Below are positions 26,280 through 59,740 of a stretch of 64,000 nt of DNA, piece after piece. The notes below the pieces were generated by a model. That model worked only from the letters and a program-made list of their open reading frames with translations. It was not told where the DNA came from and searched no databases. This stretch comes from a virus. Made by a program: the position numbers and the translations under genes. The stretch lies in the IMG/VR virus record IMGVR_UViG_3300046501_000558, positions 17,478 through 81,477 of that record, one strand, 5' to 3'. Within the stretch, counting starts at the first letter, position 1; each line of letters opens with the position of its first letter.

Positions 26280-26990
26280 TTATGACGCGGGAGCAAGACA
26301 GAATGATAAGTAAGGATAACCATTGTCATTTTGTGCAATGTAAGAAGCAGAAGGGTTTGCAGGTATTTCAAATGTTGAAGGCTCACTAGCGTCTACAATC
26401 TCAATTCGAATACGAACATATTTATCAGATGTATTTTCGAAACGGGCACCTTGGGCACCATTGTAGTAACCGTTAACGTTTGCCACTGGTTGCCATGCAG
26501 CATCTACAGCTGTAAGAACTACACCATGAACGTTCATTAGGTAATTTTTAAAATCATCACCTCTAAATATTCTAGTATTAGAGAATTGATCGTCATTCAC
26601 GTATAAGAAATAAGTACCTCCATCTGAAAGAATTTGTGCCCCCATTCTTGAAGTGGCATTAGCACAACCGATAGGTATTACCGTATCGCCATTATTACCT
26701 GTATTTCCGTTATTGATGGGTTCTCCATTTACTCGCAATACTTGAATGCTCGGTATATTGGTATCAAGTGCATCTTGTACGGCGACATAATCTAGATTTT
26801 TAGGATCAAAGCCAAGCATACCGCGAATGTTTGCTTTAGTAATAGTCATTGGTCGATCTAAGCGACCACGCTTAAACTTACCGATCAGAATATTATTAAT
26901 TGATGCGGATCCTGTAGAACCTGTTTTGTCTGTAACGCCCTGGTATTGGATACCGGGTTCGTTGCCTAAAATTGATGTGATTTGTGGCAT
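26280..26990 (-). CDS. Virion module protein A (sheath-like constant N-terminus plus variable C-terminus)
   Basis: First 87 aa nearly identical to 59081..59740; late promoter upstream. Confidence 0.65.
   Translation of the reverse strand: MPQITSILGNEPGIQYQGVTDKTGSTGSASINNILIGKFKRGRLDRPMTITKANIRGMLGFDPKNLDYVAVQDALDTNIPSIQVLRVNGEPINNGNTGNNGDTVIPIGCANATSRMGAQILSDGGTYFLYVNDDQFSNTRIFRGDDFKNYLMNVHGVVLTAVDAAWQPVANVNGYYNGAQGARFENTSDKYVRIRIEIVDASEPSTFEIPANPSASYIAQNDNGYPYLSFCLAPAS
26731..26990. repeat. 260-bp direct repeat, copy 1 (copy 2 at 59481..59740)
   Basis: Colinear near-identical DNA at offset 32750. Confidence 0.85.
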
Positions 26991-27014
26991 AAGTTTTACC
27001 TCTGTTTTTTTTGT

Positions 27015-27055
27015 ATTTTGAGGTAGTTCTTTTGAGCTGATTTATTAAAATTCCT
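27015..27055 (-). promoter_or_regulatory. Putative late promoter (AGGAAT-N29-CAAAAT)
   Basis: Motif copy with 29-bp spacing. Confidence 0.65.
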
Positions 27056-27234
27056 TATAAAAAAGAGGGTAGGACCCTCTTGAGAGATGCACAAAAAATA
27101 CTATATTTTAATAAGTTGCCCCATCTTATTTACCACATTAAAAGTAATTTTTCCGATCGTAGCCCCTTCGGTGCCATTAGTCATTCTATAAGTCATTGAG
27201 GTTCTGGCTCTCCTGGTTGTAGTTCAGGTTGCGG

Positions 27235-27537
27235 CTAGGGATCTTCTGGGAAAAATTGTTCGGTATAAATGCGTAAAACTGATATTTCAGCGATCCCATT
27301 ATCTAGAGCATCATGAACGGCAACGTAATCAGGATTCCAAGGCTCATGACCTAATACGGCGCGAACATTGGCTTTTGTCACTTTCATTGGCGTATCAAGA
27401 CGACCGCGTTTAAATTTTCCAATAAAGACATTGTTAATAGGAGCTTTAGGGGCGTTATCATCGATAACGTTTACCCCATTGTTTTGAATTCCTGATTCGT
27501 TTTGAAGATAGGTAGTTATATGAGCCATGATTATCAA
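27235..27537 (-). CDS. Virion module protein C (constant domain only, possibly truncated)
   Basis: PINNVFIGKFKRGRLDTPMKVTKANVRAVLG..P.NPDYVAV.DALD..I..I.VLR shared with the two paralogues. Confidence 0.6.
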   Translation of the reverse strand: MIIMAHITTYLQNESGIQNNGVNVIDDNAPKAPINNVFIGKFKRGRLDTPMKVTKANVRAVLGHEPWNPDYVAVHDALDNGIAEISVLRIYTEQFFPEDP

Positions 27538-27573
27538 ATAAATGAGCCCTGCAATTCAGGGCTTTAAAAATAA

Positions 27574-28194
27574 TTAAGATACAAAAAGCTGTTTCTCTGC
27601 AGTACGGCGGTTTGCTAAACCTTCCACCTTTCTGCCTGCATCAAACACCCAGCGATCAAACTGTTCAGCTGCGGCGCGACCTTGATTTGCATTGATCAAG
27701 CGTAGCATCGTACTTTTGGTAAATTGGGTTTCACCCACGTTATAGACAAAGCTTGCTAGTGCATCGAATTGATTTTGTGTAATGCTTACAGTCACATATC
27801 GATCAAGACATGCATCAACCCATTTACAATCATTAATAAGCCATTGTGTCGCTTGATCTTCTGTACATGTGTCGCCCTGTTTTACTGAACGGCCATCAGG
27901 ATATTTAATAGTACCGAAGCCAATAGTCCAAACATTGCCTGTATCCAAATATGCGCTTGCTCGAAAGCCTTCTAACTTTTTGATTAGTGCATAACCTTTA
28001 GGTGAGATATCTCGAGAACCTGAAACACCGTTTAGCGTAAAGCTAATTGATTTAGCAAAAGTCTCTAAACCTACGGCTGCAATAATTTGGTCGCTTGCCG
28101 TAACCTGATCATGTGTTAATACTCCGCCAGACATGGCTTTTAACCACGAAAAAGCTGCAGCAATTTGCTCTTTATTTCCGTTCATAAGTCGCAT
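27574..28194 (-). CDS. Endolysin, GH24 lysozyme
   Basis: LIKKLEGFR..AY.DTGNVWTIGFGT, QNQFDALASFVYNVG, GLANRRTAEKQLF. Confidence 0.95.
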   Translation of the reverse strand: MRLMNGNKEQIAAAFSWLKAMSGGVLTHDQVTASDQIIAAVGLETFAKSISFTLNGVSGSRDISPKGYALIKKLEGFRASAYLDTGNVWTIGFGTIKYPDGRSVKQGDTCTEDQATQWLINDCKWVDACLDRYVTVSITQNQFDALASFVYNVGETQFTKSTMLRLINANQGRAAAEQFDRWVFDAGRKVEGLANRRTAEKQLFVS

Positions 28195-28442
28195 CCTTCC
28201 AATTTTTTAAAATAAGTAGCTAGGAAGTGAATAAATAACGTAACTAGCAGAACTAAAAATATGAAAGTTCCAAGTAGATTTTTATTTGCAATGAAGCTAC
28301 ATGAGGAAAGGATTGTTAAAACAATGATCCAACTTCTTTTACAGCTGGCCGTATATAAAATATGGTCGGGTAAAAAAGTACATATACCTGTGATGAGAAT
28401 AATCGTTAAACAAATAACGTTTTTAAGTGTGAAAAAGTCCAT
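28182..28442 (-). CDS. Putative holin
   Basis: 86 aa, three hydrophobic segments, overlaps endolysin start. Confidence 0.6.
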   Translation of the reverse strand: MDFFTLKNVICLTIILITGICTFLPDHILYTASCKRSWIIVLTILSSCSFIANKNLLGTFIFLVLLVTLFIHFLATYFKKLEGCDL

Positions 28443-28444
28443 GA

Positions 28445-28939
28445 TTAAGCCTCATCACGAAAGGTTTTTTTGATTCTTTCTAGATCTTCTTCAGTTACAC
28501 CTGTTTTCTCTTCTGCTTTTTTGATCATTGCAGCGTGGAATAAATGAATAATTGCAGGTGAAACGAAAGAAACGCCAGCTACCCAAAAAATGACACCAGT
28601 TGTAATTTCATTCTCTGAATGGATGTAATACACGAATGCAATAAAACCACAGGTGATAGAGATGAGTAATTTTATTGGCTTAGGTATTGGCTTTGCGCCG
28701 TATTGTGGCGTAGGAAAGAAGTAACCGATTGTTGAGCCTAAGATCAATACAATCACGCAAGCCACAGTCAGAATAAAATCACTATGGCTTGCGGTAGATT
28801 CTCGAAGGACTTCATTTGTTAGCAATGAAGCTGTTTTAGTGTCCTTGTTGAAGGCTGCAAAAGCAGCCTCGGTACAAGGGAGAAATAACCAGACGATGCG
28901 CCAAAGCAATGCACTGATTAGTTTTAAATTGTCGCTCAT
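28445..28939 (-). CDS. Putative holin/antiholin membrane protein
   Basis: Several TM segments and charged C-terminus within the lysis cassette. Confidence 0.55.
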   Translation of the reverse strand: MSDNLKLISALLWRIVWLFLPCTEAAFAAFNKDTKTASLLTNEVLRESTASHSDFILTVACVIVLILGSTIGYFFPTPQYGAKPIPKPIKLLISITCGFIAFVYYIHSENEITTGVIFWVAGVSFVSPAIIHLFHAAMIKKAEEKTGVTEEDLERIKKTFRDEA

Positions 28940-28950
28940 TATTAGCTCGC

Positions 28951-29217
28951 TTATCTGTAATTCGTTAAAAGTCGAATTAATTCAGCGTTCATTTGAGCAT
29001 TCTTCTTATCTTCCTCTTTTTTAACCTTCCACGCCTCTGACGCATAATATTCATCAATAAAGTTAAAAGGCAGATCTAAAACAGCATCTAAGTTGATATT
29101 ACTATCAATACTAAACTGTTGTATTTTCCTCCACCATGATTTCAAAAAGCCGTTTTGCTGGTCCCGTGATTGCAGAATTAATGCGAAATCGAACGGGTGC
29201 ATCATCTGTACCCCCAT
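28951..29217 (-). CDS. Small tail-assembly protein (start uncertain; possible frameshift extension)
   Basis: Overlaps the 3' end of 29111..29830 in another frame; W...Q......VLDLP pattern. Confidence 0.4.
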   Translation of the reverse strand: MGVQMMHPFDFALILQSRDQQNGFLKSWWRKIQQFSIDSNINLDAVLDLPFNFIDEYYASEAWKVKKEEDKKNAQMNAELIRLLTNYR

Positions 29218-29830
29218 TAATCTTGTTTAATACAATTCCTTTGTAATAACTGATATTTACAAGAGTTTGCAGCTGCTCTTCTAAATTGCGAAATTTATAA
29301 ATTAATTCGTTTAAAACTGGCTGATCAAGTTCATTTAATATATCAATTCGGTTTTTGATCATCTTGCCTGTATTGCCGACATCTTTTAATAGATCTGGTC
29401 GGATTGGTGGAAGTTCATCGCAACCAATTTGCATGCTCATGGCTCCTAAGATCCAATCCGCTGAATTTTCACAGCCAATTTCTAAAGCCTCTGCTTCAAT
29501 ACCTGTTAAATGTCTAACTTGAATATTATCGTCTTCAATTGGATCTCGTTTAAAAACACTCAGATCAGAATGAAGGAATTGCTTAATATCGATCGACTCA
29601 TCAATGTTTTTATCTTCAATAGCATCTAAGTAGGTTAGAAGGATTGCGTAACGCTCTTGAGTTGTTAGAGCACGGGCATTAACGTCTGAGCCTATGATTG
29701 CACCCAAACCCCGAGTAAGCATAGCTTCGAAGTGCGTTGATTTGAGTTTTGCCATATCTTGAATGACACTATTTTTTAAGTGATTAAATTTATAGTTGCG
29801 ATTCGCAATAGACTCTTGCATGAAGCTCAT
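29111..29830 (-). CDS. Putative tail/baseplate assembly protein
   Basis: Position in late operon; LT.QERYAILL.YL and VRHLTG.EAE.LE segments resembling P1-type tail proteins. Confidence 0.5.
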   Translation of the reverse strand: MSFMQESIANRNYKFNHLKNSVIQDMAKLKSTHFEAMLTRGLGAIIGSDVNARALTTQERYAILLTYLDAIEDKNIDESIDIKQFLHSDLSVFKRDPIEDDNIQVRHLTGIEAEALEIGCENSADWILGAMSMQIGCDELPPIRPDLLKDVGNTGKMIKNRIDILNELDQPVLNELIYKFRNLEEQLQTLVNISYYKGIVLNKINGGTDDAPVRFRINSAITGPAKRLFEIMVEENTTV

Positions 29831-29833
29831 AAG

Positions 29834-30610
29834 TTACCCCAAATAAAGTTTAGAAATATTGTTTTTATCCCAAGCTTCTCGGCTCAAGAAATTGACAGGT
29901 ATCGTGACAAACATTCGATTCCCTTCAGAATCCTTGGGCATGGTTAAAGATTCTGAATAGGTCTGAATAAGTAGTGGTGCATATCTTTTACCGCCGTAAT
30001 ACAAGGCAACGAACGGTGGAACTAGAGAAGGAAATAGTGATTCAAGTGTTTTTTCTTGCGCAAAGCTTGATAAAAGCGATTGGTCACTTAGATACTCTGG
30101 TAAGGACCACTGTTTTAATACATCTAATTGATCTTCTACTTCAGCCTTTGCATCTTCCCATGTCTCAAAATACAGGGTGAATGGAATGCTCACAGGATTT
30201 GTTGATGTGTAAATTTGCGTAGAGTTTTCTTTAGTTAAGTTGCTACGGCCAGCGAGTGAATTTAATTTTTCTTTAGTCGTATCACTCATATCAAAACCAA
30301 CTGTGCCGAGTACAGTATCAAGTGTATCGGCCCAATTACCAGACTGCAGCTGTCCCATCATAGTAGGAAACTTTTGCTCGGGATTCGAGTTTTCAAATGG
30401 TGATGAGTACTGATTATCAATATTCAGTTCACCATCTAAACCCAATGCTGTTACTTGATCGGCTTCACCTTCGATTAGGTTGCCTTTGTTGTCACAACGG
30501 CGGATCCTAACTAATAGATGGTCGTTTATAGATCCAAAATTAGATGAGTTTTTATATTGGGTTGATTCTTTGGGCGTGTTTTCAGGTTCAACTGGTGGAT
30601 TATAAGCCAT
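29834..30610 (-). CDS. Putative baseplate/tail-tube initiator protein
   Basis: YSSPFEN, TQIY....VSIPFTLYF, L.QWSLP, P.FV...YGG..Y.P..I tube-initiator pattern; first gene after a late promoter. Confidence 0.55.
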   Translation of the reverse strand: MAYNPPVEPENTPKESTQYKNSSNFGSINDHLLVRIRRCDNKGNLIEGEADQVTALGLDGELNIDNQYSSPFENSNPEQKFPTMMGQLQSGNWADTLDTVLGTVGFDMSDTTKEKLNSLAGRSNLTKENSTQIYTSTNPVSIPFTLYFETWEDAKAEVEDQLDVLKQWSLPEYLSDQSLLSSFAQEKTLESLFPSLVPPFVALYYGGKRYAPLLIQTYSESLTMPKDSEGNRMFVTIPVNFLSREAWDKNNISKLYLG

Positions 30611-30640
30611 GATGCACCGATAAAATGAATAATTAAACCC

Positions 30641-30681
30641 ATCTTATCGGCTAACAAACTGAGGTTTTTATTAAGATTCCA
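30641..30681 (-). promoter_or_regulatory. Putative late promoter (TGGAAT-N29-TAAGAT)
   Basis: Motif copy with 29-bp spacing. Confidence 0.65.
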
Positions 30682-30683
30682 TT

Positions 30684-31019
30684 CTATTTTTTAACATAGT
30701 TTGGAAAGGCTTTTAAAATATCTTTGCATAATTGGGCTTTAGGTGTTTCATCTTCGCGTTCTTCGAACTGACTAATACCAAATTTCAAAACTTCTTCAGT
30801 GTACTTATCGCCTAGCTCATGTCTTGAACATTTACCAACATCATGCATGAATTCTTTTGAATAATACCGATATTTACATTCATATTGTGCGCGGCTTAAA
30901 AAACCATGTAGTGCTACAATTTGCTCACAATATGTTGGCTCTTCCCCGTTTTTAGGTGCCAGCGCATATACTGATGTTCCAATGAATAAAGTACAAACCA
31001 TAATTAAGAATTTACGCAT
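30684..31019 (-). CDS. Secreted Cys-containing protein
   Basis: Signal peptide MRKFLIMVCTLFIGTSVYA; four further Cys. Confidence 0.65.
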   Translation of the reverse strand: MRKFLIMVCTLFIGTSVYALAPKNGEEPTYCEQIVALHGFLSRAQYECKYRYYSKEFMHDVGKCSRHELGDKYTEEVLKFGISQFEEREDETPKAQLCKDILKAFPNYVKK

Positions 31020-31159
31020 TATTTTCCCCGATAAAATTATTAGAAAGTAATAGTGATAATGTTGCGGGGCGTATTAAATAATAATTGTTTTTAAGTGTCT
31101 ATTAATAAAAGAAAAAGAGGGGAATTCCCCTCTTTCTAATGAATACTAAGTCACAAAAT

Positions 31160-31369
31160 CTAATTTATTACCTCTGTGACATACTTCATTTCCCAAGTTG
31201 GATGAAAAAATTTTGATTTATTTTCACCATCAAGTTTTATTGTTAAATGCATTGTGCCATCTTTACGTGTGCCAGTGATAACACCCGGTTTACCTGATGC
31301 AACTACATGCATGCCGCGCTTTGCGGGTACGCCGTACATTTTACGGATTGCTTCCATTGTGCCTTTCAT
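31160..31369 (-). CDS. Small phage protein
   Basis: IR..YGVPAKRG..V...GKPG.ITG...HPTW motif common in phages. Confidence 0.7.
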   Translation of the reverse strand: MKGTMEAIRKMYGVPAKRGMHVVASGKPGVITGTRKDGTMHLTIKLDGENKSKFFHPTWEMKYVTEVIN

Positions 31370-31400
31370 AACATTCCCCTAATAATTTATGTCACCCTAA

Positions 31401-31691
31401 TTAATCCTTCTTTTTGGGCTTTGGTATTTCTAAAGAACTAATTGTTTCCAAAATTAAAACCACAGCTTCATACTTAAGCTTATTTAAATCGTCATGAGGG
31501 GGATTAAAAAAACTAATAAAACCCGAAAAACTTGAGCATTCATCTTCCTCTTCAAGATGTATATTGTATTGATACGCTAACTCGAAAACTTCTTTGCGAA
31601 ATCTTAACGTTGCATTTTCATGTTCTATTTCAGCACGGCGATCAAGTATTAAATCCCGCTCTTCATCAGTTAATTCCATCATTGTAGCCAT
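31401..31691 (-). CDS. Hypothetical protein
   Basis: 96-aa ORF in minus-strand early region. Confidence 0.55.
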   Translation of the reverse strand: MATMMELTDEERDLILDRRAEIEHENATLRFRKEVFELAYQYNIHLEEEDECSSFSGFISFFNPPHDDLNKLKYEAVVLILETISSLEIPKPKKKD

Positions 31692-31806
31692 TAAAAACTT
31701 ACTCTATTTGTAGGAAGCATAATTCCTATAATTAACATTAAATATTCTGGTGAAGCAGTATTAATCTTAGTTAAAACTGCTTCACCAATAGAATCAATTT
31801 AAACCT

Positions 31807-32632: not shown

Positions 32633-32664
32633 TGCTATGATGTTCCTAATTTAAAAATAATGGT

Positions 32665-45157: not shown

Positions 45158-48100
45158 CTAAAGCTGCTGCATAGCTTCATCTTCAATTAGTTTGGTGATT
45201 AGAGCGCCTAAAGCTACAGGATCAACGGGATGACCTGCCAACTTAATAGCAGCATTGACTGTACTCCAACTAACCTCAGAACTTTTAAAAATAATGGCTG
45301 GTACCATTCTTTCATTACGATCTTTAGCGAGGGTTAAACGTTCAATACCGTGGACTAAAAAGTACTTACTTCCATTTTCAAGTACAACTATAGGATCTTC
45401 GAGAGAAATTCTACTTTCTTGCAATTTTGGGGCTTTGGCCGTGTTCACTTTACTCACCATGACATGTTCATAATGACCGTCTTGCGACCAGCTGTCATAG
45501 ATACCCTTTAACTGCTTATTCTCTTCAGTAATCTGGTTAAGCCATTGGACAAACTCGTCAAAGCTGTACTGTTCAATATTACCCATACCCGAAAAATTTT
45601 CATCATAATGATTTTGGTACAGTAAAGTAGCCTCAGCTTTGCTATTCGCGCCGATAATGACTTTATGTTCATCAAAGTCACCATGTTCATCATTCTGGTG
45701 AACAACAAAAATAGGTCCCGCATAATCCGATTGAGTACCAGGAACAACGAACACATCGACTTCATCACCATCATGGCCTAGAGAGTCTGTAAAGAATCCG
45801 TAGTGAGCTAACATTTTGGTTTCCCAAGTCTCGCCGTCAGCCCCTACCCCTGACCGTACGCTACCCGCAGGATTCTCTATATGAACATGTAATTCATTAA
45901 TTTTTAACTTGCCAGTAGTGTAATCACCACTCTGCAATTGTTGCTCATTTGGCTCTTGTCCTTGATTTAAACTGCTTGTAGCGGCAGATTGGGCAAGAAT
46001 GTCATTAACACCAAGCTGGTCATCGTCAGTGAAGTTATTAGTGCCAGAGCTACCAATACCATCAAGCAATTGAAAATTTTCATTAGAACCTATGACCATT
46101 TCAAAATCAGGATCATGGAATGCATGCGTAAATAATGCATCCATGAATGCTTTATTTTGACTTGCTGTTTCAAGAATTTTTTTCTCTTTAATTACATGAA
46201 AGAGCTGATCGAATGCAGCATTTACAGCTTCACGTTCAACGCCCTGCGGGTACGCAACTTCACCAACACGATTATTGCCCCCTTGTGTTGAGTAAGCTAA
46301 ATAATCATTTTTACGGCCCATAGTAGCCAAACGATCTTGTAAGTATGCAGAAAACGAACGCGCAGCCATTTCAAGTTCTTGGGACCAATATTTGCCCATT
46401 TTGCCTTGATCTAAAAGTAATGCTTTATTATAAAAATCACTATGAGAATCAAAACCCTCTATAGCGATTTGTACACCGCCGTCAGCTGTAAGAGAAACGT
46501 CGCCTTTTATAAAATGGCGAGCAATCAAATATTCACCTAGTTTATGTTGTGCAAAAGAATCAACATAGACTCTCGACTTTGCTTTAAGAGCATCAAACCA
46601 TGCTTTAAATTTTTCAACAACAATACTCAAAGGCTGTTCAAATGGTGCTTCAGGGTCTAAACCCATATCTTTAGCAAATTCTTTACCTGTTGAAGCATAG
46701 TTAGATAAATCAAACTCATCAGCTTCTTTAGATAAATCCTTATATTTATTCTTATGAACAAGTCGATTTTTATGGAAGCGTAAAGCATACGTTAAGTTTT
46801 TGAATGCTTCAGAAAGCTCTTTATCTTCAATCTTTGCGTAGTCACGTGTACCAAAAAAGCCCAACGCACCAACTTTCTGAGTTGATAAGTCATTGATTAA
46901 ATTATCAAGGGCATGGAAATATTCATGGCCTAAGGAACCTCCCCCCTTCATTTTAGTGATATTAATGACTTTGGCGCTTGGTTCATAATGAGCTAAAGCC
47001 CCACTCTTACCACGCGCACCGAAAGCTAAAGCTAAATTTCCGTTTAGACCAAGATTTTTGACATCAATGCCGAGAACGTCGGACATATCAATCATAGCCT
47101 CAGCGGTCGCTTGCATATGAAACTCAGCACTCGACTTATCTTTTAATACCCAATTGCCTGATTGAATACCACGGAAATTACAGAGTTGTTCAAGCTCTTT
47201 TGAAGATCTTACCTGTACAGCTGGGCCGCCAACACGTTCAATGTCTGCAGCTGCTTCAAGTTGAAAACTCGGGGCCTTAGGTTTTTTAGGTTTACCCTCT
47301 TCATCAGTTAATTTTGGCTCTTTATCAAGCCAAGCCCACTCTAAGCCTTTAGATTGTTGATATGTACGAGGTACGCGCCCGGTTCTGGCTTCTTGTAGAG
47401 CAGAGTTACCAGTGTTAAAAATCCAAGAATAAAATTTTTGCCCAAGCTCTGAAATTACCCGTGTTTCCCATTTATCGAAATTCATAACCTCAGCAAAAGC
47501 AGATTTATCGTAATATTTGACTAAGCCTTTAGGATTTTCAATTTCATAGCTAATATCAACAATTATTTTTTGAACTTGTTCATATTTACGGCATTTTTCA
47601 AGACGCTCACGTAGATTTGAAATAGCTAAAACATAGTTTTTACGGCTTTCAGCATTGGTTGGAACAACGGGTTGTTTCGCAACGGCGTCATAAACGCGTT
47701 TAATCAAATAAGCGACTTCAGAAGGCATTCCATCATCACGTAATTGGCTCCAATCAACCACACCAAACACATTTTTTTTGTTGATTAGTGCTTGAGCTAG
47801 ACGATCGTCTTTATTGAGTTCATCCCAATCAATATCACTAATAACAATGTTTCGGCCTTCTTTTTTCGCTACATCAAAAGTTTGGGTTAAGAATTTACGA
47901 GCACCAGCAATCACGGCGGTATCTTTCCAACGGTAATTTTCCGATGTTGTTACACTCGATAGGCCATCACCTTCATCAATAATATTTGGTTCAGCATCAG
48001 GCTCTTCCGAAGAAATTACACCATCAAGCAAAACTGTAATTTCATTAACTCGACGAGAAATTTTTACCTTTTCAAGAGGCGATAATTCACCTTCTTTCAA

Positions 48101-48160
48101 CTGAGCAACTAATTGGATACTTTCACGGGAAAGTTTGATTTTTTCTAACATCGTCAACAT
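45158..48160 (-). CDS. DdrB-like polyvalent protein (metallopeptidase/LPD1, pyrophosphatase-like and ParB-like domains)
   Basis: LALAFGARG...AHYEP..INITK..GGGSLGHEYFHALD; YWS..LEM.ARSF; IENPAGSVRSG...HYG...DGDEVDVF...DEHKV; follows darA-like gene. Confidence 0.7.
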   Translation of the reverse strand: MLTMLEKIKLSRESIQLVAQLKEGELSPLEKVKISRRVNEITVLLDGVISSEEPDAEPNIIDEGDGLSSVTTSENYRWKDTAVIAGARKFLTQTFDVAKKEGRNIVISDIDWDELNKDDRLAQALINKKNVFGVVDWSQLRDDGMPSEVAYLIKRVYDAVAKQPVVPTNAESRKNYVLAISNLRERLEKCRKYEQVQKIIVDISYEIENPKGLVKYYDKSAFAEVMNFDKWETRVISELGQKFYSWIFNTGNSALQEARTGRVPRTYQQSKGLEWAWLDKEPKLTDEEGKPKKPKAPSFQLEAAADIERVGGPAVQVRSSKELEQLCNFRGIQSGNWVLKDKSSAEFHMQATAEAMIDMSDVLGIDVKNLGLNGNLALAFGARGKSGALAHYEPSAKVINITKMKGGGSLGHEYFHALDNLINDLSTQKVGALGFFGTRDYAKIEDKELSEAFKNLTYALRFHKNRLVHKNKYKDLSKEADEFDLSNYASTGKEFAKDMGLDPEAPFEQPLSIVVEKFKAWFDALKAKSRVYVDSFAQHKLGEYLIARHFIKGDVSLTADGGVQIAIEGFDSHSDFYNKALLLDQGKMGKYWSQELEMAARSFSAYLQDRLATMGRKNDYLAYSTQGGNNRVGEVAYPQGVEREAVNAAFDQLFHVIKEKKILETASQNKAFMDALFTHAFHDPDFEMVIGSNENFQLLDGIGSSGTNNFTDDDQLGVNDILAQSAATSSLNQGQEPNEQQLQSGDYTTGKLKINELHVHIENPAGSVRSGVGADGETWETKMLAHYGFFTDSLGHDGDEVDVFVVPGTQSDYAGPIFVVHQNDEHGDFDEHKVIIGANSKAEATLLYQNHYDENFSGMGNIEQYSFDEFVQWLNQITEENKQLKGIYDSWSQDGHYEHVMVSKVNTAKAPKLQESRISLEDPIVVLENGSKYFLVHGIERLTLAKDRNERMVPAIIFKSSEVSWSTVNAAIKLAGHPVDPVALGALITKLIEDEAMQQL

Positions 48161-48171: not shown

Positions 48172-49656
48172 TTATTTTGAAGCGTTTTCAATAGCAAACT
48201 GCGCGTATGCTTCAGCGGCTTGGTTAAATAGATCTGTTAAGTCTTCGCTTAATCGCTCCCCAATTTCTTCAAGTTTTGCACCTGTTTCGTCATCGGCAAG
48301 GTTTACTGAGCCATCAATAACACCCGTTAAGAATTCCTGATCTGGATTAACGTCAGGCTTAGGCTCTTCAGGTACAACAACCGGATCTATTGAAGGGGTG
48401 CTTTCATCAATTGTTGGATCCCCTTCAGTATTATCGACGGGTTCAGCTTCTTGCTGATTTGGTTCATTACCTTCATCGGGTAAAACACCAGGTAAACCCT
48501 CTTCAGCTTCACCGTTTTCTACGGCCAGTGTGTTTTCAAACTTTTCTTGTTGTTGCTGAGCATGCTCATCAATTAACTTTTGTTGGTCGGCAATTTGTTG
48601 ATCTAACGAAGCCAAAGTATCTTGTGCAGTAGTTAAGGCTTCGTTTGCATTATCAAATTCTTGCTGAATACGTAATTTTTCGGCTTGTGCGCGGATATAG
48701 CGAGGATGAGTACTTACAAGTAATTTCATCATGCGCTGAGCAATCAAATTGAATTTCTTAGAGTCTACGGCGCGAGGTTGTAGAGCAGCTGTAACATCAC
48801 GGCGGTTTAACATCCATTTCCATGATGTGAGAACATCATCTTGTGAAAGTTTGGATGGTGTAGAGTCGGGATTATTGAGAATTACAGTAATTGTTTGAGT
48901 GTCAGACATCGTAAATACTGCAGCTACGTTTGCGACCCCTAAGCGCTTAAAAGGCTTTAGTTTGGTAACTTCTTCAACATAAAAAGTTTTGTCACTTATG
49001 GCTTGCAGCTGCTTCGCAATTTTATCAATTACTTTGTCAAATTCACGATATTGAATCACCATGGCGTCATGAATAGCCACTTCACATTGCTCATCAATCA
49101 AGATTTCGGCAATCTGTTTCGGTGTCACCGAGTCAAATAATTCTGCATGGGCATCATTTTGCACAATATCAAACATGAACTGAGCAAAATTACCGCCGTG
49201 TGATTTGATAGAGCACTCATCCCAAATGGGTTGCTCTTTGCAGATCCGGTGATTGAAATGCTCGGCATCATCTTTCAATAAGTACTGAGTGTTAGACGGG
49301 ATCTGTGCGCTATCAAGAAAGCGCTTCATACCGATATCTGTCAATGATTGAGAGCTGTGTAAACTCCCATTCATTAACGGCAATAAATAGCGCTTTACAA
49401 GCCGTTGGGCTTGATCTTCACTTACAGCACCAGCTACGGCAACTTGATCAGTACGATCAGCATTAACAACATTGAATACTGACCAGTTTGAAGATCCAGC
49501 ACTATCGCAAAGAATTGCTGGAATCTGTCTAGATTGGCCTTGTAGGTGCCCGATATTTGCAATGCAATGATCATTTTGCATTGTGCCATCGGGCATTTTT
49601 AAATTGCGCTCATCACCTGTTTGATAAAGGGCATTAAAAAGGGCATTTTTTGACAT
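48172..49656 (-). CDS. DarA-like defence-against-restriction protein
   Basis: F.MSD.QTITV...NPD.TP.KL...D.L.SWKW.LN.RDVT DarA N-terminal-domain motif, coiled coil, acidic linker. Confidence 0.78.
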   Translation of the reverse strand: MSKNALFNALYQTGDERNLKMPDGTMQNDHCIANIGHLQGQSRQIPAILCDSAGSSNWSVFNVVNADRTDQVAVAGAVSEDQAQRLVKRYLLPLMNGSLHSSQSLTDIGMKRFLDSAQIPSNTQYLLKDDAEHFNHRICKEQPIWDECSIKSHGGNFAQFMFDIVQNDAHAELFDSVTPKQIAEILIDEQCEVAIHDAMVIQYREFDKVIDKIAKQLQAISDKTFYVEEVTKLKPFKRLGVANVAAVFTMSDTQTITVILNNPDSTPSKLSQDDVLTSWKWMLNRRDVTAALQPRAVDSKKFNLIAQRMMKLLVSTHPRYIRAQAEKLRIQQEFDNANEALTTAQDTLASLDQQIADQQKLIDEHAQQQQEKFENTLAVENGEAEEGLPGVLPDEGNEPNQQEAEPVDNTEGDPTIDESTPSIDPVVVPEEPKPDVNPDQEFLTGVIDGSVNLADDETGAKLEEIGERLSEDLTDLFNQAAEAYAQFAIENASK

Positions 49657-52024: not shown

Positions 52025-52065
52025 ATTGTCAAATGATTTAAAAATCAGCCATTTTGGTTATTCCA
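52025..52065 (-). promoter_or_regulatory. Putative late promoter (TGGAAT-N29-GACAAT)
   Basis: Motif copy with 29-bp spacing. Confidence 0.7.
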
Positions 52066-52067
52066 CC

Positions 52068-53476: not shown

Positions 53477-53490
53477 GGTCTTAACTCACT

Positions 53491-53943: not shown

Positions 53944-53946
53944 GAT

Positions 53947-54573
53947 TTATAACTGCCCCAACGCTCGAACAAGTGAATTACCAGCTTGAACAAAGTTTAA
54001 AATGTCGTTTGCATCTCGTAGGAACTTGTCAAAAGCTGGGGTTGCATTCTGCATTTTTCCAACGGCGGGGCTTGACGAACCTAGGCTTGAGTTCATACCA
54101 AAATACATATATTTGATTGGGGCATTAATTTTCATAATTGTATTTCTGCCCTCTGCATCAATTTCACCGCCTTCAAATGTAATAGCGCAGTCAGTTAATT
54201 GGTAGGCAAGTGTAAAACGATCTCTACGGCCATCAAAAACGATACAGTCTGTACTACCGCCGTTTGCCATGAGAAGTTCAGCAAAACCCGCAATTTGACC
54301 AGTATCCGTTTCGATCATCTGCATTTGACCTTCATGACTTGTTTTCGGCACACCAGGGCGGTGAGCTTGTAGACCACCTGCAAAAACGATCTCAGCCGGT
54401 TCTGTATAAGTGGTCACAGGTCGAGGCGCTTGCGGAATTAATAGCGCAATATCAGGAGCAATAGCTGGGACAATCATGGCATTACATGCCAACATTGCTG
54501 TACCTAAGCTTTTGGCTGTTTCGTAGTCCTGACAGTAGTCTAGAAGTGTTTGCTCGAAGTTACTTGCTCGCAT
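53947..54573 (-). CDS. Tail tube protein
   Basis: LLI.Q.PRP, Q.IET..G, Y.YFG as in P1-type tube proteins; start at MRASNF downstream of late promoter. Confidence 0.65.
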   Translation of the reverse strand: MRASNFEQTLLDYCQDYETAKSLGTAMLACNAMIVPAIAPDIALLIPQAPRPVTTYTEPAEIVFAGGLQAHRPGVPKTSHEGQMQMIETDTGQIAGFAELLMANGGSTDCIVFDGRRDRFTLAYQLTDCAITFEGGEIDAEGRNTIMKINAPIKYMYFGMNSSLGSSSPAVGKMQNATPAFDKFLRDANDILNFVQAGNSLVRALGQL

Positions 54574-54609
54574 AGTTTGAATATTCCGAAAATATGAAAT
54601 GTTCGGAAT

Positions 54610-54650
54610 ATTCTGCAAGCATTCAAAAATGGCCTTTTAAAGCAATTCCA
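54610..54650 (-). promoter_or_regulatory. Putative late promoter (TGGAAT-N29-CAGAAT)
   Basis: Motif copy with 29-bp spacing. Confidence 0.7.
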
Positions 54651-54667
54651 CCCTAAAACGTTGAAAT

Positions 54668-55282
54668 TTATCGATACTGAAAAGCTCCTACTTTCGCTCC
54701 AACCATAGCCGCGCCCATGTTAATGTTAATTGAATCGCCTAGATTGATACGTATTCCTACGGTCGGGTAAATGTGTGCCGGTACTAAATTTTGAAGCGTA
54801 GGCGTCAACTCAATTAATTCCTGACGGTCAACTTCATCATCCATGAGAATAAAAATACGTGACGTTAAGAAACTGTTTTCTGTTTCATACTCTGTTGCCA
54901 AAATAGGATATCGATTAATCCGTGAAATACTGTGATAGAGCCTAATAATTTTCCACTGGTTAGGCCATAGCATTTGAAGGATGAACTCCAAAAATGCGAG
55001 TCCTTGTTTTGAAGATAAAGATTTCCAATTTGCATAGATAACCCTCATGATTAAAGCGCTTACTTGAGGTCGTCTAAGTACAACTAAACCGTCCTGTTTT
55101 GTAAAACGCTCGACCACATTGGCGCTACCCAGATGAGGCATGCCGTAATAATAAATGTCGTTGAGCTGATCTTTAAAAAGTAGTTCAAATAAACGAATAA
55201 AATACTCTTTTAAGAAAGCTTCATCTTCATCGAAGGTATCTGACTGCTTGAGAGGGTAAAGTAGGTCTAGATTATCGACCAT
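54668..55282 (-). CDS. Baseplate wedge protein
   Basis: GL.FLEFIL.MLWP, FLTSRI, VPAHI motifs; follows J-like gene. Confidence 0.6.
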   Translation of the reverse strand: MVDNLDLLYPLKQSDTFDEDEAFLKEYFIRLFELLFKDQLNDIYYYGMPHLGSANVVERFTKQDGLVVLRRPQVSALIMRVIYANWKSLSSKQGLAFLEFILQMLWPNQWKIIRLYHSISRINRYPILATEYETENSFLTSRIFILMDDEVDRQELIELTPTLQNLVPAHIYPTVGIRINLGDSININMGAAMVGAKVGAFQYR

Positions 55283-56718
55283 CGGCTTCCCCCTGTATTC
55301 TTAGTTTGTTTAATATCTAAAGTAATACTATTCGCCGTTAAATAGGTCCACTGATGCGGTTTTATAGGGTTATCTTCTAGATCCTCCATCATCATTTTAA
55401 AATCGCTCGTACGATCTTGAAAAGCGCTGATATTGTCACTTAAAAGTTTTCCGATTTCTTGGGAGTTAAAACCATCAGCAATATAGTAGCTCGTTGCTGT
55501 TGTTTCACGGCCATAAAACTTTAAGAGTAGGGTTTTGATCTGTTCTTTAACAGCTTCAGCATTGTGAACAGGTGATAGTAGCCCTTGAATTGTTAAATTA
55601 AAGGGTCTTTCTTCAACTGCATGAAAGATAACCTTGCCCTTATACAAGTTATTCAATAATCCAATATAGTTAGCCAAATCTTCTTGCAATAAAGATTGTT
55701 CTGCAGGTGTTTTTGCAGCTACGGCCACAAACATTTTATTAATACTTGTATAACTCGGTCCGTAATTCGCTTCTTGTTCAACTTCATTCCAAACATTCAA
55801 ATAATGTGAACGTGGTAGAAAGCTTTTTAAACATGAAGCGTTATAATTGCCCAAGAATACTGCATCATCAAAATCAGGATATGAAGAAAGTAAGCGTAGT
55901 TGCTCGATATTAAGAGAATCAGCGCCAGTACGAAATAACCCACCAGTTTTAAAGCGAATTACAGCACGTTGTTCTGTTGCTGTCTCGACCGTCTCTAAAG
56001 ATGCCTCACGCAATAACGCTGCATCAATATCCCCAAAACTTTCAATAATCTGAATAGTTAAAACCGAGCCCGCTTGTAAAGTTGTGCCAAAACGTGAGCT
56101 GTCTCCGAATTGCATGGTCATCTTACGGCGCGTATTGGTTGTAAGGACGATTGCTTTATCATTCGCGTTTGTATTCATCCAACGCTTAGCAAAGCTATAT
56201 ATGTTTCCGTCTTGGTCATTAACTGACAATTGCACTAAATCTACATCGCTTTGCAGGTCAAGCGGGTAAAAATGAAATGGTTCTGTTACGGTTGGGCTAT
56301 ATGTAACCTCTCTTAATTCAGATTGTTCAGCTAGAACAGCTACCATTTCACCTTTTGCAGCATTAACACTCTGCAGTAAACGCCATGGACGACCTTGTCC
56401 ATCGAGAATTACGCGCCCACTTGCAAGCGATAAGTTGTTGTTACCATTATTTATGACTTCTATATAGTGCTGACATGGGGTACATAAGGGCAGAATGCCT
56501 TTATTACTTGCATCAGCCAGTATGGTAGCATCACGTGTCTTCTTGAAGGGTTCAAGTTCTGAAATATCAACATCACGGCCAAACTCGCCTAAAACATGCT
56601 GAATCACTTGCAACGGTGCCGTAATAGTCGGATCCCCAGCCGCATAACGAGCTGCATAAGCTGGATAATCTTGCAGTACTTGTAAAGATAATTCCTGAAT
56701 TCTAGCCAGCGTTGGCAT
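55267..56718 (-). CDS. Baseplate J-like protein (P1 BplA-like)
   Basis: EPF..TRDATILADA.NKGILP, FGD..RFG, G.D.L..EQLR, VWNE..QE. Confidence 0.75.
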   Translation of the reverse strand: MPTLARIQELSLQVLQDYPAYAARYAAGDPTITAPLQVIQHVLGEFGRDVDISELEPFKKTRDATILADASNKGILPLCTPCQHYIEVINNGNNNLSLASGRVILDGQGRPWRLLQSVNAAKGEMVAVLAEQSELREVTYSPTVTEPFHFYPLDLQSDVDLVQLSVNDQDGNIYSFAKRWMNTNANDKAIVLTTNTRRKMTMQFGDSSRFGTTLQAGSVLTIQIIESFGDIDAALLREASLETVETATEQRAVIRFKTGGLFRTGADSLNIEQLRLLSSYPDFDDAVFLGNYNASCLKSFLPRSHYLNVWNEVEQEANYGPSYTSINKMFVAVAAKTPAEQSLLQEDLANYIGLLNNLYKGKVIFHAVEERPFNLTIQGLLSPVHNAEAVKEQIKTLLLKFYGRETTATSYYIADGFNSQEIGKLLSDNISAFQDRTSDFKMMMEDLEDNPIKPHQWTYLTANSITLDIKQTKNTGGSRWSII

Positions 56719-57043
56719 CGTAAGTGTCTCCTGTCGGATTTCTTAAATCTGCTTGTGAAGGGAGTGGTATCAAAATAGAGCCGATTGCAATAAAAAATTC
56801 TTTTTTATCAATATCGATAGGGCGACTCTTAATATTCAATGTTTCAGTAGGCAACCCTCTAAATAAAGGGATATCTTCTCGCATCCATTGCAAAATCAAA
56901 TCAGCACTATCTTCAGTCATGGGTTTAAGTAAAATTTCTTGCCAGTTTCGGCCATAGTTCACGCCGATATAGCCATTTGGCCTTGCGCTTAGCCAGTGGT
57001 TGACTATTTTCTTAATGTCTTCAACGGTTAATTGATAGCTCAT
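56702..57043 (-). CDS. Baseplate protein (gpW/gp25-like)
   Basis: HWL...PNGY.G..YG....LL.P.....AD......REDIP. Confidence 0.6.
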   Translation of the reverse strand: MSYQLTVEDIKKIVNHWLSARPNGYIGVNYGRNWQEILLKPMTEDSADLILQWMREDIPLFRGLPTETLNIKSRPIDIDKKEFFIAIGSILIPLPSQADLRNPTGDTYDANAG

Positions 57044-57408
57044 AAATAACGCTCTACGATGGAAAATGCTGTTTGATAAATAACAACACGCCACAAAAGC
57101 ATGAGCGCCTGAATGAATAGAAAAATCCAAATTTCGAGGGACCATAGCCCTAATATTTCTAATACTCTTGCCTCAGCGTAGAGGACGTATAAGAATGGGG
57201 TGCAGCTCGCTAGAAGTCTAAAAAAAAGATTTAATTTGTATGTCTGTAATACGGTTTCGAGTAATGCCCTGTTCTGCTTATTACAAATCACTGAAAACCG
57301 AGATAACAGTGATTGGCCCTCAGATTTTTTAAACATGAGTTGATATTGAAGAAAGCTAAACCAAAGAAAACCAAGGCAAATTACGCAGATATGAAATTTT
57401 AAAATCAT
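57040..57408 (-). CDS. Membrane protein
   Basis: Three hydrophobic segments; overlaps both neighbours by 4 nt. Confidence 0.55.
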   Translation of the reverse strand: MILKFHICVICLGFLWFSFLQYQLMFKKSEGQSLLSRFSVICNKQNRALLETVLQTYKLNLFFRLLASCTPFLYVLYAEARVLEILGLWSLEIWIFLFIQALMLLWRVVIYQTAFSIVERYL

Positions 57409-57932
57409 GGTGTACCTGCATTTATCAAAGCTGCATATTCATTTTGTTTTGATTCTAAGAGCTGCTGTTTCTCAGCAATTGTTTTATTCGCTTCATCAAC
57501 CAGCATCAAAACACTTTCCGTCTGTTTTTTGATGGATTTTTTGCGGCTTGCGGGGTCATTTGGAACTTGAACACGCTGTTTTTGGCGTGCTTGATCAAAC
57601 TTAGGCTGTTCAGCCTTTATTTTGAGGGCTAACTCTTCAATTCCAGCTTTGAAGTCATCAAGATTGTCATAGTCCATTACACGGCGTAATGGGATCTCTT
57701 TTTTATTGAGATACGTCTTAATAACGTCGCCGTCAGTTCTTAACGAAAGTGTAAGCGCTTGCCCCTCTTCTAAATTAAACAGGGCGTCTTTTGTTGCTAC
57801 ACCTGCAACCTTACGCATTTTATCGACAAGAATATACGCAATTTTTTGCTGTGTTGCTTTCTCAAGCGTATCTTTGATAAGCGTGATTAATTCATGAGTT
57901 TCTGATAATGAAGCCAGTTCAAAAGTTGCCAT
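57405..57932 (-). CDS. Hdf-like protein (DarA N-terminal homologue)
   Basis: RKVAGVATK...F.LEEGQ.L.L..R.DGDV....LN.K.IP plus coiled coil. Confidence 0.7.
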   Translation of the reverse strand: MATFELASLSETHELITLIKDTLEKATQQKIAYILVDKMRKVAGVATKDALFNLEEGQALTLSLRTDGDVIKTYLNKKEIPLRRVMDYDNLDDFKAGIEELALKIKAEQPKFDQARQKQRVQVPNDPASRKKSIKKQTESVLMLVDEANKTIAEKQQLLESKQNEYAALINAGTP

Positions 57933-57961
57933 AGCATTTAACCAAATAATCTTTAATCACT

Positions 57962-58002
57962 ATTTTGGGCTATGGCAAAAATTGAAAATTAAGGATATTC
58001 CA
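57962..58002 (-). promoter_or_regulatory. Putative late promoter (TGGAAT-N29-CAAAAT)
   Basis: Motif copy with 29-bp spacing. Confidence 0.7.
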
Positions 58003-58007
58003 CGCTA

Positions 58008-58382
58008 CTAGCTGTTATTAAAATCATGCTCAAAACGTTTTGGAATGGTAGAAAGGATCTCATCAGTAAAGCCTTTCATATTTTCGAAGCAATAGTATTG
58101 GTCTGATAATGTGCTAAACGGATTCTTAGCATCTGAAGCAATGAAAAGGTTGGAAAATCTAAGGCCTTCATCAAGTCTTAAATCACTTTCCCAAATAAAA
58201 ATATATTGTTGGAAGTCTCTTGGAATGGTCCGTACAAGCCCCGCTTCAGCGCCAAACACCATGATCACAGTATCTTTTTCTATAAGACTTAGCAAAATAT
58301 CTGTGAGCCCATGTTCTAGGCCCTTTGCAGAAATAACTATTCGCTTTTCAGGCTTTCCGAACCATCCCATAAAGACACTCAT
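58008..58382 (-). CDS. Hypothetical protein
   Basis: Starts immediately after the glycosyltransferase stop. Confidence 0.55.
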   Translation of the reverse strand: MSVFMGWFGKPEKRIVISAKGLEHGLTDILLSLIEKDTVIMVFGAEAGLVRTIPRDFQQYIFIWESDLRLDEGLRFSNLFIASDAKNPFSTLSDQYYCFENMKGFTDEILSTIPKRFEHDFNNS

Positions 58383-59066
58383 TTAGCCCACCTTGATCAT
58401 CTTTCCAAGACGGTCAATCACATCAGCTTTACCCCAGATTTGAGGGTAATTTACTGGTGGACTTGGCTTGTCATAATTTTTGATCTCACCGTTATTTACA
58501 TACATATCTTTTTGCTCACGCGTGTTTTGAATCGCCGGAACTCGATAAGATGCATGAATTGGATAATATTTAAATTTATGAGCCCTGACTCTAAGGTCGC
58601 CATCATCTCCTTTTAAACCGACTAAGGTTTCGTTGTAGCCCTGTAAACGGTAGAAAGCATCTCGGGTATAGCCCACTCGCCCAAGAATTCCCTCGTTTTC
58701 AATCCCTAATCTTGGCAAAAAGAGCTGATAATCTTTGAGCAAGCGCAATTCATATAAAAGCCCGTCATATATGTAATTATCGCCGTCTAAATTGAATAGA
58801 ATGTCACCAGTAGCGAGACGATGAGCTACATTTTTCGCATAAGCTGATGTATAGGCATAATCATCGACCATTTGAAAATATTTAAGTTGGCCGCTCTCTA
58901 AATAGTCTTGAAAATTATTAAAAACCCAATCTTTTAAGCCATCAGGCGACTTGTAATCTAACAAAATAATCTCTGAATGCTCATCGAGCATTTTTAAATT
59001 ACCAGGTAAGGTTTGGCTCAATTGCCACAAACGGCCTTTACACGTTGTGCAGAATGAAATACGCAT
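58383..59066 (-). CDS. GT-A fold glycosyltransferase (GT2/GT7-like)
   Basis: ISFCTTCKGR, EIILLDY.SPD, AKN.A..LATGDILFNLDGD (DxD), F..L.GYNE...G..GDDGD. Confidence 0.85.
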   Translation of the reverse strand: MRISFCTTCKGRLWQLSQTLPGNLKMLDEHSEIILLDYKSPDGLKDWVFNNFQDYLESGQLKYFQMVDDYAYTSAYAKNVAHRLATGDILFNLDGDNYIYDGLLYELRLLKDYQLFLPRLGIENEGILGRVGYTRDAFYRLQGYNETLVGLKGDDGDLRVRAHKFKYYPIHASYRVPAIQNTREQKDMYVNNGEIKNYDKPSPPVNYPQIWGKADVIDRLGKMIKVG

Positions 59067-59080
59067 CTAAAAATTCCTTT

Positions 59081-59740
59081 TTAACGTGGCTCATAAGCAC
59101 AAAGCTCTAAGTTATCGATTAATTTTATGGTGCTATAAACTGGATCATTCAAACTATTCGTACTATTACTTTGCAGAACGAGGCTCGCCGTTAAATTAAT
59201 TTTTAAACAATCATTCGTAGTGTTTTGAAGATAAATTGTTCCGTTTTCGTCTGAACTCAATGAGTAGGATACTATTTCATAAATATTGTGAGCTTCTGCA
59301 AAAATTGAATTTAAACCATCCATAATTGAATAGGATGATGTACTAGCTGTAATTCCATGAAAAACTTGATTATTTAAACTTAATGTATAAATAACCGATC
59401 CGTATTGTGTTGGATAATAAAGATTATAACTATTCGTTAATTTGTAAAAATCTGATTGGCAGTTACAACTAGGTATTGCAACTCGTAACACTTGAATACT
59501 AGGTATATTTGTATCAAGTGCATCTTGCACAGCAACATAGTCTAGATTCTTAGGATCATAGCCGAGCATTCCACGTATGTTGGCTTTGGTAATAGTCATC
59601 GGTCGATCTAAACGGCCACGCTTAAATTTTCCAACAAAGATATTATTTATCGGTGCGGATCCTGTAGATCCTGTTTTGTCTGTAACTCCGCTGTATTGAA
59701 TACCCGGTTCATTGCCTAAAATTGAAGTGATGTGTGGCAT
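59081..59740 (-). CDS. Virion module protein B (sheath-like constant N-terminus plus variable C-terminus)
   Basis: First 87 aa nearly identical to 26280..26990; S/T/N/Y-rich C-terminus; late promoter upstream. Confidence 0.65.
   Translation of the reverse strand: MPHITSILGNEPGIQYSGVTDKTGSTGSAPINNIFVGKFKRGRLDRPMTITKANIRGMLGYDPKNLDYVAVQDALDTNIPSIQVLRVAIPSCNCQSDFYKLTNSYNLYYPTQYGSVIYTLSLNNQVFHGITASTSSYSIMDGLNSIFAEAHNIYEIVSYSLSSDENGTIYLQNTTNDCLKINLTASLVLQSNSTNSLNDPVYSTIKLIDNLELCAYEPR
59481..59740. repeat. 260-bp direct repeat, copy 2
   Basis: Matches 26731..26990. Confidence 0.85.

Follow-up and report, generated by a model that had tools for sequence, protein, structure and literature searches.

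To our knowledge, wherever contractile sheaths have been described in phages, pyocins or extracellular injection systems, the protomer is a single chain, the type VI secretion system (T6SS) offering the sole known two-chain sheath. There, the protomer consists of a small and a large chain (TssB/TssC, or VipA/VipB), with the N-terminal linker strand coming from the former. In all sheaths known to us, the N-terminal arm pairs with the C-terminal arm of a neighboring subunit to generate a 'handshake' mesh. For gp22, the sheath protein of phage P1, the published structural account (PMC10304247) describes an N-terminus (residues 3-34) that forms the inter-subunit handshake with the C-terminus of a neighbor, a domain II comprising residues 35-99 and 243-425, a domain III (residues 100-242) that extends outside the sheath, a domain I (residues 426-516) that contacts the tube, and a C-terminus spanning residues 517-528. 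The present study considers a 64,000-nucleotide stretch of viral DNA (hereafter, the window), namely bases 17478-81477 of the 81,477-bp IMG/VR record IMGVR_UViG_3300046501_000558, where a sheath gene lacking the front end of such a protein was found together with three dispersed genes sharing an N-terminal module that corresponds to the missing part. The genes in question are listed below.

61751..63073, minus strand: predicted sheath large subunit (C-piece, here termed the core), 440 aa, corresponding to domains I and III, the second part of domain II and the C-terminal arm
26280..26990, minus strand: predicted small subunit copy A, 236 aa; constant module 26730..26990, variable domain 26280..26729, Cys at residues 109 and 231
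59081..59740, minus strand: predicted small subunit copy B, 219 aa; constant module 59480..59740, variable domain 59081..59479, Cys at residues 92, 94, 178 and 214
27235..27537, minus strand: predicted small subunit copy C, 100-aa open reading frame (ORF); constant module alone, likely ATG at 27528, TAG at 27237..27235

Complementary parts of a sheath protein

The initial annotation of the window had proposed that the part common to the three ORFs resembles the N-terminus of contractile sheath proteins that the 440-aa sheath lacks. Profile, alignment and structural comparisons all agreed with this proposal, with the two pieces mapping to non-overlapping portions of known sheaths. When compared with the PHROG tail-sheath profile phrog_1036, the core matched positions 121-530 of 531 (E 3.5e-90), while the modules of all three copies matched from position 4 to positions 64-87 (E 3e-5 to 3.5e-4), with copy C giving the best score (E 3e-5). 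The same division was seen when HHalign was used to compare the two pieces with sheath proteins in which both parts are fused. In the metagenomic protein P0055 (543 aa), the module aligned to residues 6-99 (95.7%, E 1e-8) and the core to residues 121-538 (98.9%), while in the sheath of Xanthomonas phage Rb1 (547 aa), the module aligned to residues 9-99 (82.5%) and the core to residues 125-546 (99%). When PDB sequences were searched, neither the core nor the module profile gave matches above chance level.

Structural comparison placed the two pieces with respect to P1 gp22. In the AlphaFold2 (AF2) model of the core (predicted local distance difference test score, pLDDT, 82), residues 1..426 corresponded to gp22 residues 103..518 (VIA Z 17.9, 382 aligned). 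The top three Foldseek matches to this model were P1 sheath chains (8JAJ, 8JAN and 9AY3; E 8e-17 to 2e-15), and the fold also matched the sheaths of pyocin, the Photorhabdus virulence cassette (PVC), T4, phiKZ and T6SS (Z 12-16), with these other sheaths beginning to align to the core at their residues 94-106. The AF2 model of copy B (pLDDT 80.9) comprised a stretch of low confidence (residues 1-30, below 50), a small folded unit (residues 31-91) and a confidently predicted domain (residues 98-213; pLDDT about 90 over residues 100-219). Residues 24..91 of copy B, corresponding to the module, superimposed on gp22 residues 30..100 (Z 6.4, 23% identity), thereby providing the structural likeness to sheath N-termini that the initial annotation had suggested seeking, and also fit residues 21-100 of further sheaths, among them those of KP1, phiKZ, phiCD508 and T4 (gp18). 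Indeed, sheath N-terminal segments (chain residues about 21-100) accounted for the top eight re-aligned Foldseek rows obtained with the module and for the top seven rows of a Foldseek-independent search of 48,161 PDB representatives.

Beginning as it does at the equivalent of gp22 residue 103, the core thus has neither an N-terminal arm nor the opening segment of domain II. As the start codon of the core gene lies 3 nt after the stop codon of the upstream gene, no hidden N-terminus is possible. Together, these comparisons support assignment of the shared module as the missing front end of the tail sheath. When the pieces so mapped are considered in light of the domain limits of gp22, the fission falls exactly at the passage from domain II to domain III.

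We consider it probable, based on the sequence comparisons and structural models, that the sheath protomer of this phage is an obligate two-chain heterodimer, in which the small subunits serve as a modular scaffold for display. The large subunit would provide domain III, most of domain II, domain I (i.e., the tube-facing wall) and the C-terminal arm, while the small subunit would provide the N-terminal handshake arm and the first ~65 residues of domain II. In agreement, module residues 1-30 are predicted to be disordered, as an arm should be. Because the small subunit would supply both the arm and the start of domain II, each protomer should need one. Moreover, since the chain is cut where it enters the outward-facing domain III, the C-terminus of the small subunit should emerge on the outer face and so be free to carry an additional domain, which would sit on the outer surface, beside domain III. 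The three small subunits, two decorated and one bare, would compete for the single core, giving rise to a sheath bearing mixed display domains. Physical pairing of the two chains, their 1:1 ratio, a sheath of mixed composition, display on its outer face and binding by the displayed domains are all inferred from the models and comparisons presented here.

The three small-subunit genes of the window

All three of the ORFs to which the initial annotation had drawn attention are present on the minus strand and encode 236, 219 and 100 aa. Copies A and B share residues 1-87 (92% aa identity over 88 columns) and become unalignable immediately after the sequence ...IPSIQVLRV, with both ending in a Cys-containing tail (..LSFCLAPAS and ..LELCAYEPR). 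The description of the shared 260-bp DNA as near-identical did not hold, as copies A and B match at 220/264 nt (83%), with the longest exact run being 17 nt. Since the numbers of non-synonymous and synonymous substitutions per site in the two modules are 0.04 (dN) and 0.95 (dS), respectively, corresponding to a dN/dS ratio of about 0.04, the likeness of the A and B modules is maintained by selection on the protein rather than by recent conversion. At the same time, these values do not support the suggestion that the 260-bp repeats swap alleles within the genome, and rule out recent gene conversion or intragenomic recombination between copies A and B. When sequencing runs were considered, none contained more than 8% of the sampled words of region 25800..28300; these runs were all in the form of contigs, and no RNA run was among those listed.

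Copies A and B carry variable domains of ~130-150 aa that are unrelated to one another, although both are acidic (pI about 4.3). Three PHROG families of unknown function, phrog_14345, phrog_5283 and phrog_24956, match all three copies (E 1e-19 to 2e-73) through the N-terminal module only, save for copy A, which phrog_14345 matches along its full length (E 2e-73). For the variable part of copy A, the leads offered by the Atlas search were BACON, CBM6, Big and F5/8-type clusters, all below the bar (template modeling score 0.39-0.45), while for copy B, feature scores were 0.90 or below. In BFVD, copy B matched two unnamed viral proteins of 91 and 115 aa (43-50% identity), followed by sheath proteins at E 2e-4 or weaker. 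Among the BFVD fold neighbors of copy B were short proteins of 162-271 aa annotated as 'tail sheath monomer' from T4-like and other phages (Aeromonas phage phiAS4, Klebsiella phage KPV15 and Salmonella phage 38). Free pieces of this kind, corresponding to sheath N-termini, may also occur in other lineages.

Copy C is a distinct, older paralogue of copies A and B, with which it shares about 60% nt and 59% aa identity. That 27235..27537 holds the constant module alone, as first annotated, was confirmed, and the cause can now be added, namely truncation. The orthologues of copy C in three related IMG/VR records (G001, G002 and G004) are 285-287 aa long and continue beyond the sequence ..FFPEDP into a PEPQPEP-type linker and a ~185-aa domain. 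Alignment with the 285-aa G001 orthologue, BLAST breakpoints and three-frame reading served to trace the remnant of this region in the window:

27101..27234, minus strand: remnant of the Pro-rich linker and C-terminal domain of copy C; deletion junction near 27195, old stop ending at 27101

Copy C is thus short because a stop codon (TAG at 27237..27235) and an out-of-frame deletion of ~420 bp near 27195 took away its former C-terminal domain, the old 3' end of which can still be recognized up to 27101.

The claim that each full copy has its own late promoter found no confirmation, in that a sigma-70 scan listed no promoter-like minus-strand site in the gaps immediately upstream (27063..26991 and 59812..59741). 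A 14-nt motif, GGAAYTTYAAWAAW, was noted at 27041..27054, 59794..59807 and 30667..30680 on the minus strand, where it precedes copy A, copy B and the ORF at 29834..30610, respectively, ending 51-57 nt before their start codons. The motif was derived from the copy A and copy B sites themselves. Allowing for one mismatch, six matches were found, as compared to 2.2 expected, with 3/100 shuffles reaching six, such that the enrichment is statistically weak. The motif could be a phage promoter element. In addition, terminator-like hairpins were detected near copies A and C:

27063..27081, minus strand: terminator-like hairpin between copies C and A
27545..27563 and 26147..26175: further terminator-like hairpins

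As copy A is flanked by two of these hairpins (27081..27063 and 26175..26147), its expression needs either its own promoter or read-through.

Split sheaths and putative display cassettes in related elements

To determine how widely the split is conserved, related elements were compared. The close homologues of the core are all 427-443 aa long (24/24), and a single core gene was found in each of the five records searched (G000, G001, G002, G004 and G005). By contrast, small-subunit genes number 2-4 in each of six IMG/VR records (G000-G005) and from 1 to about 7 across related elements, with at least one being present in every element examined. The largest set met was in contig 12 of G006 (Acinetobacter lwoffii BE44, 81.8 kb), where 6-7 such genes, their open frames ranging from 165 to 574 aa, lie side by side at 1464-4915 and 80888-81836. 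In G005, both small-piece genes are found about 27 kb from the core, showing that adjacency to the core is not required. In the window, the core gene is followed by the gene listed below and then by a small piece (copy B) or, at a far-off locus, by the remaining copies.

60975..61748, minus strand: phrog_1053 gene, 257 aa, downstream of the sheath core; a synteny marker common to phages ABMM1 and Rb1, the latter with a fused sheath

In the cultured temperate phage vB_AbaM_ABMM1, one 431-aa core is followed by a phrog_1053-type gene and then by one bare 92-aa small piece. The tail of this phage was seen to be contractile by transmission electron microscopy (PMC10345192), and the same source lists 'tail sheath proteins (Gp12; Gp14)', an entry that carries no comment on a split. 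Because the sheaths of Rb1 and P0055 are fused, and because Rb1 presents the same downstream gene, the split state is the derived one, with the fused proteins likely corresponding to the ancestral state, judging from these sequences.

This distribution bears on the possibility that the split is an artefact, reflecting either misassembly or the recent inactivation, by breakage, of an ordinary sheath gene in a defective element. Although the record is derived from a metagenome and one of the copies is indeed broken, the same layout is seen in other, independent records, in isolates and plasmids, and in a cultured phage that forms plaques. Moreover, a conserved gene separates the core from the small piece, which is encoded downstream rather than upstream in a shifted frame, and the module is under strong selection. 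An artefact is accordingly considered highly improbable.

A search of 1.84 billion representatives with the module profile identified 297 clusters (50% identity) at E<=1e-3 and 264 at E<=1e-10. Among the matches listed, the module was N-terminal in 150/150 clusters, with proteins ranging from 90 to 762 aa in length. When fused forms were sought, none of 167 module-bearing members matched the core hidden Markov model; the longest members among the matches listed (470-762 aa) carry other domains and not the core. Bare modules (127 aa or shorter) accounted for 16/167 members. The C-terminal parts of at least 40 aa (n=148) fell into 69 BLAST groups, of which 50 were singletons. Pfam assigned 11/147 members, with BspA-type LRR_5 being found in six and DUF285 in five.

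Comparison of relatives was also informative as to whether C-termini vary while N-termini remain fixed, a check proposed in the initial annotation. At the copy A locus, the alignment with the near relative G001 continues through the intergenic region and the constant module, is interrupted where the constant part gives way to the variable one and picks up again further downstream, with the flanks being 84-95% identical. Here, G001 holds a different protein of 201 aa. The copy A variable type is, on the other hand, retained in G002, in G004 and in eight family members. When 19 non-singleton C-terminal types (94 rows) were mapped onto a FastTree tree of 144 modules, 48 changes were counted, relative to a minimum of 18 and to 56.4 +/- 1.1 upon shuffling (200 shuffles), reflecting a near-random scatter of C-terminal types. 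Tree and locus comparison together support cassette exchange, as read from these sequences.

The cassettes often share a pattern of Cys residues. Of 148 variable parts, 71 contain Cys both in the first 35 residues and in the last 12, and 75 contain a terminal Cys, with 41 of the latter having exactly two Cys residues; the overall Cys frequency is 1.3%. Copies A and B both fit this pattern, while bare small subunits contain no Cys. The Cys pair could possibly act as a disulfide clasp joining the two ends of a cassette. Separately, Cys381 of the core was found to be invariant in 25/25 aligned split-type cores, while the corresponding position is not Cys in P0055 or Rb1. That Cys381 forms an intermolecular disulfide with the C-terminal Cys of a cassette was judged unlikely, because bare small subunits have no Cys and because sequence alignments place Cys381 in the inner core.

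One relative offers a clue as to what the cassettes might do. In the C-terminal part of a 717-aa small subunit of G004 (L029:810-2963, minus strand), Pfam identified NCTSP_N (E 1e-24) and TIM-barrel_NCTSP (E 5e-75), both described by Pfam as domains of 'non-contractile tail sheath protein'. Judging by this name, the two would have been built on gp65 of phage N4, described as both the receptor-binding protein of N4 and the major subunit of its non-contractile sheath (PMC13434306). In G004, a receptor-binding module appears to have been grafted onto a contractile-sheath subunit. The same Pfam domains are absent from copies A, B and C of the window.

Extending the two-chain proposal, the display domains would bind host-surface structures, most likely as adhesion or receptor-binding modules, and would be exchanged between phages as cassettes by recombination at the constant/variable junction. 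In its fullest and far more tentative form, which may hold but which we regard as somewhat less likely than its opposite, the entire sheath (about 180-300 protomers) would constitute a multivalent array of randomly co-assembled receptor or glycan binders, including those of the N4 type, with cassette exchange serving as a second means of diversifying host range or adsorption alongside the fibers, and with the Cys pair serving as a generic disulfide clasp that holds whatever fold is inserted in compact form at the junction.

The same observations can be read differently. The core could polymerize alone, with the small proteins being accessory caps at the neck or baseplate, or optional decoration, such as fiber-like adhesins. 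The confidently folded model of the isolated core would suit such a role, as would the variable number of small-subunit genes (1 to about 7) and the presence in one relative of receptor-binding domains typical of tail-tip proteins. Moreover, the P1 terminator gp24 is described as feeding N- and C-terminal strands into the sheath mesh, such that non-sheath proteins can use this interface (PMC10304247). Yet, the module includes the start of domain II (gp22 residues 35-99) and not the arm alone, and this segment is missing from the core in 24/24 close homologues. Furthermore, all elements examined keep at least one small subunit, with the minimal cultured phage having a bare one near its sheath gene, and in the fused relatives, both parts form a single protein. 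We therefore consider an accessory role to be unlikely.

Alternatively, copy B alone could be functional, with copies A and C being decaying duplicates or decoys expressed during lysogeny, perhaps poisoning sheath assembly by superinfecting relatives. In favor of this reading are the truncation of copy C by a stop codon and deletion, the location of copies A and C among terminator-like hairpins at the end of the prophage, and the presence of neighboring morons, such as a PD-T4-7-like gene. Against this, copy A remains intact, with strong purifying selection acting on its module (dN/dS about 0.04) and with its variable type being conserved in G002, G004 and eight family members. G001, G002 and G004 also each have a distal locus, containing 1-3 intact small-subunit genes, while in G005, only distal small subunits are found, so that distal copies must suffice there. 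This explanation is thus given a slightly lower likelihood than that of accessory or cap proteins, with artefact ranking last of the three.

Returning to the two-chain sheath with display domains, several observations weigh against this proposal. The module aligned to 7-8 sheath entries with Z values of 5.0-6.7, and Z values below 8 can reflect a common arrangement. For a unit of 65 residues, these values are modest; the case rests on consistent positions, on complementarity across three methods and on profile matches (E 1e-5 to 1e-8). When modeled by AF2 without a partner, the core is predicted with confidence (pLDDT 82) and presents no obviously incomplete fold. As for display, searches of Pfam and NCBIfam yielded no match for copies A, B and C or for the core, leaving the variable domains of copies A and B unassigned, while the fold matches of the copy B variable part were weak (FliD D2-D3, Z 5.0; immunoglobulin/fibronectin type III-like, Z below 4). 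A binding role for these two domains would accordingly be an extrapolation from relatives. Since the 87-residue FastTree tree is weakly resolved, the apparent shuffling of C-terminal types is overstated. Copies A and C, set apart by hairpins, are found 32 kb away from the sheath gene, next to the genes for lysis and integration, a position typical of morons. Finally, the loss of the copy C domain indicates that at least that display domain is dispensable.

Genomic setting and comparison with known systems

We take the element to be an entire temperate myovirus, P1-like, of the Acinetobacter type and 81 kb in size. The two ends of the source record (81,477 bp) overlap by 127 bp, in line with its classification under direct terminal repeats, and its completeness is rated at 100%. 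The minus strand encodes a P1-like myovirus set, comprising portal, tail tube, baseplate, sheath, DarA_N, DarB-like and Hdf-like proteins, lysozyme and a tyrosine integrase. Close homologues are found in Acinetobacter contigs and plasmids of 76-88 kb, with additional relatives in Acinetobacter lwoffii, other Acinetobacter species and Alkanindiges. The tail tube gene is located as follows:

53947..54618, minus strand: tail tube protein (phrog_1120, E 6e-52), in the context of a contractile-tail module

Other genes were also noted. Between the sheath module and copy B, a 308-aa ORF at 59813..60739 on the minus strand matches PD-T4-7, a candidate defense protein in PADLOC (E 3.3e-24), with no match to this ORF in PHROG or Pfam; it is likely a defense moron within the late structural region. 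Fifteen nt downstream of copy B, the minus-strand gene at 58383..59066 encodes a glycosyltransferase family 2 (GT2)-like enzyme (Glyco_tranf_2_2, E 5.5e-7, just above the Pfam cut-off), after which comes an unknown 124-aa ORF. Speculatively, the GT2-like enzyme could glycosylate a virion protein, for instance a displayed domain. Directly upstream of the core, the gene at 63077..64000 and beyond (G000 C1 1..325) encodes a protein containing ~16-aa repeats rich in Ala, Glu, Thr and Pro (..AAVETETAAPAAE..), with a phrog_37171 domain at the C-terminus; this gene spans the 127-bp terminal overlap of the contig. Lastly, a P1-type anti-restriction set is encoded on the minus strand at 45158..48160, 48172..49656 and 57405..57932, consisting of a 1000-aa protein with LPD1 and InPase domains and a DarB-like PHROG match, a DarA_N protein and an Hdf-like protein.

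A search of the full-text literature on split or two-protein sheaths, sheath decoration, and Acinetobacter or P1-like tail sheaths revealed no description of such a split. If the proposal is correct, this lineage shows that the sheath fold tolerates fission at the junction between domains II and III, and the cut marks a natural site for attaching foreign domains without blocking assembly or contraction, of use in engineering tails, tailocins and injection systems. An unrecognized layer of host interaction along the tails of temperate Acinetobacter phages and phage-plasmid-like elements is likewise suggested. Given the existence of a cultured relative, ABMM1, the idea of a split sheath is directly testable.

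Of the known systems, P1 gp22 (8JAN, 8JAJ and 9AY3; phrog_1036) shares with the proteins described here both fold and P1-like tail lineage, with the window also containing DarA-, DarB- and Hdf-like genes. Unlike gp22, a single chain of 529 residues, the sheath considered here is cut between domains II and III, its N-terminal piece is encoded downstream or far off and exists as several paralogues, and additional C-terminal domains are present. ABMM1 Gp12/Gp14 (OQ471969) present the same split and synteny in a cultured, plaque-forming phage, differing in that there is a single, bare, 92-aa small subunit. The Rb1 protein (547 aa, annotated as 'tail connector protein') and P0055 (543 aa) are homologous to both pieces, yet each is a single chain.

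Like the T6SS sheath, that of the present phage relies on two chains encoded by separate genes, as observed at the gene level, with heterodimer formation being the probable consequence. TssC/VipB aligned to the conserved part of the core (model residues 148..426; Z 12.3-13.0). By contrast, no relation to TssB was detected, in that Pfam gave no match for the module and no TssB chain was found among the matches listed in the fold searches. Whereas tssB and tssC are adjacent, the order here is reversed, with the large piece encoded first and the small piece later or at a distance. Moreover, TssB has neither variable display domains nor sets of paralogues. As such, the phage split looks like a fission independent of T6SS. 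Finally, in offering a surface that displays host-binding domains, the proposed sheath would resemble the non-contractile sheath of coliphage N4 (gp64/gp65) and Hoc of phage T4, an example of an immunoglobulin-like virion decoration module, differing from both in that the anchor here would be an integral part of the contractile sheath subunit rather than a separate decoration protein.

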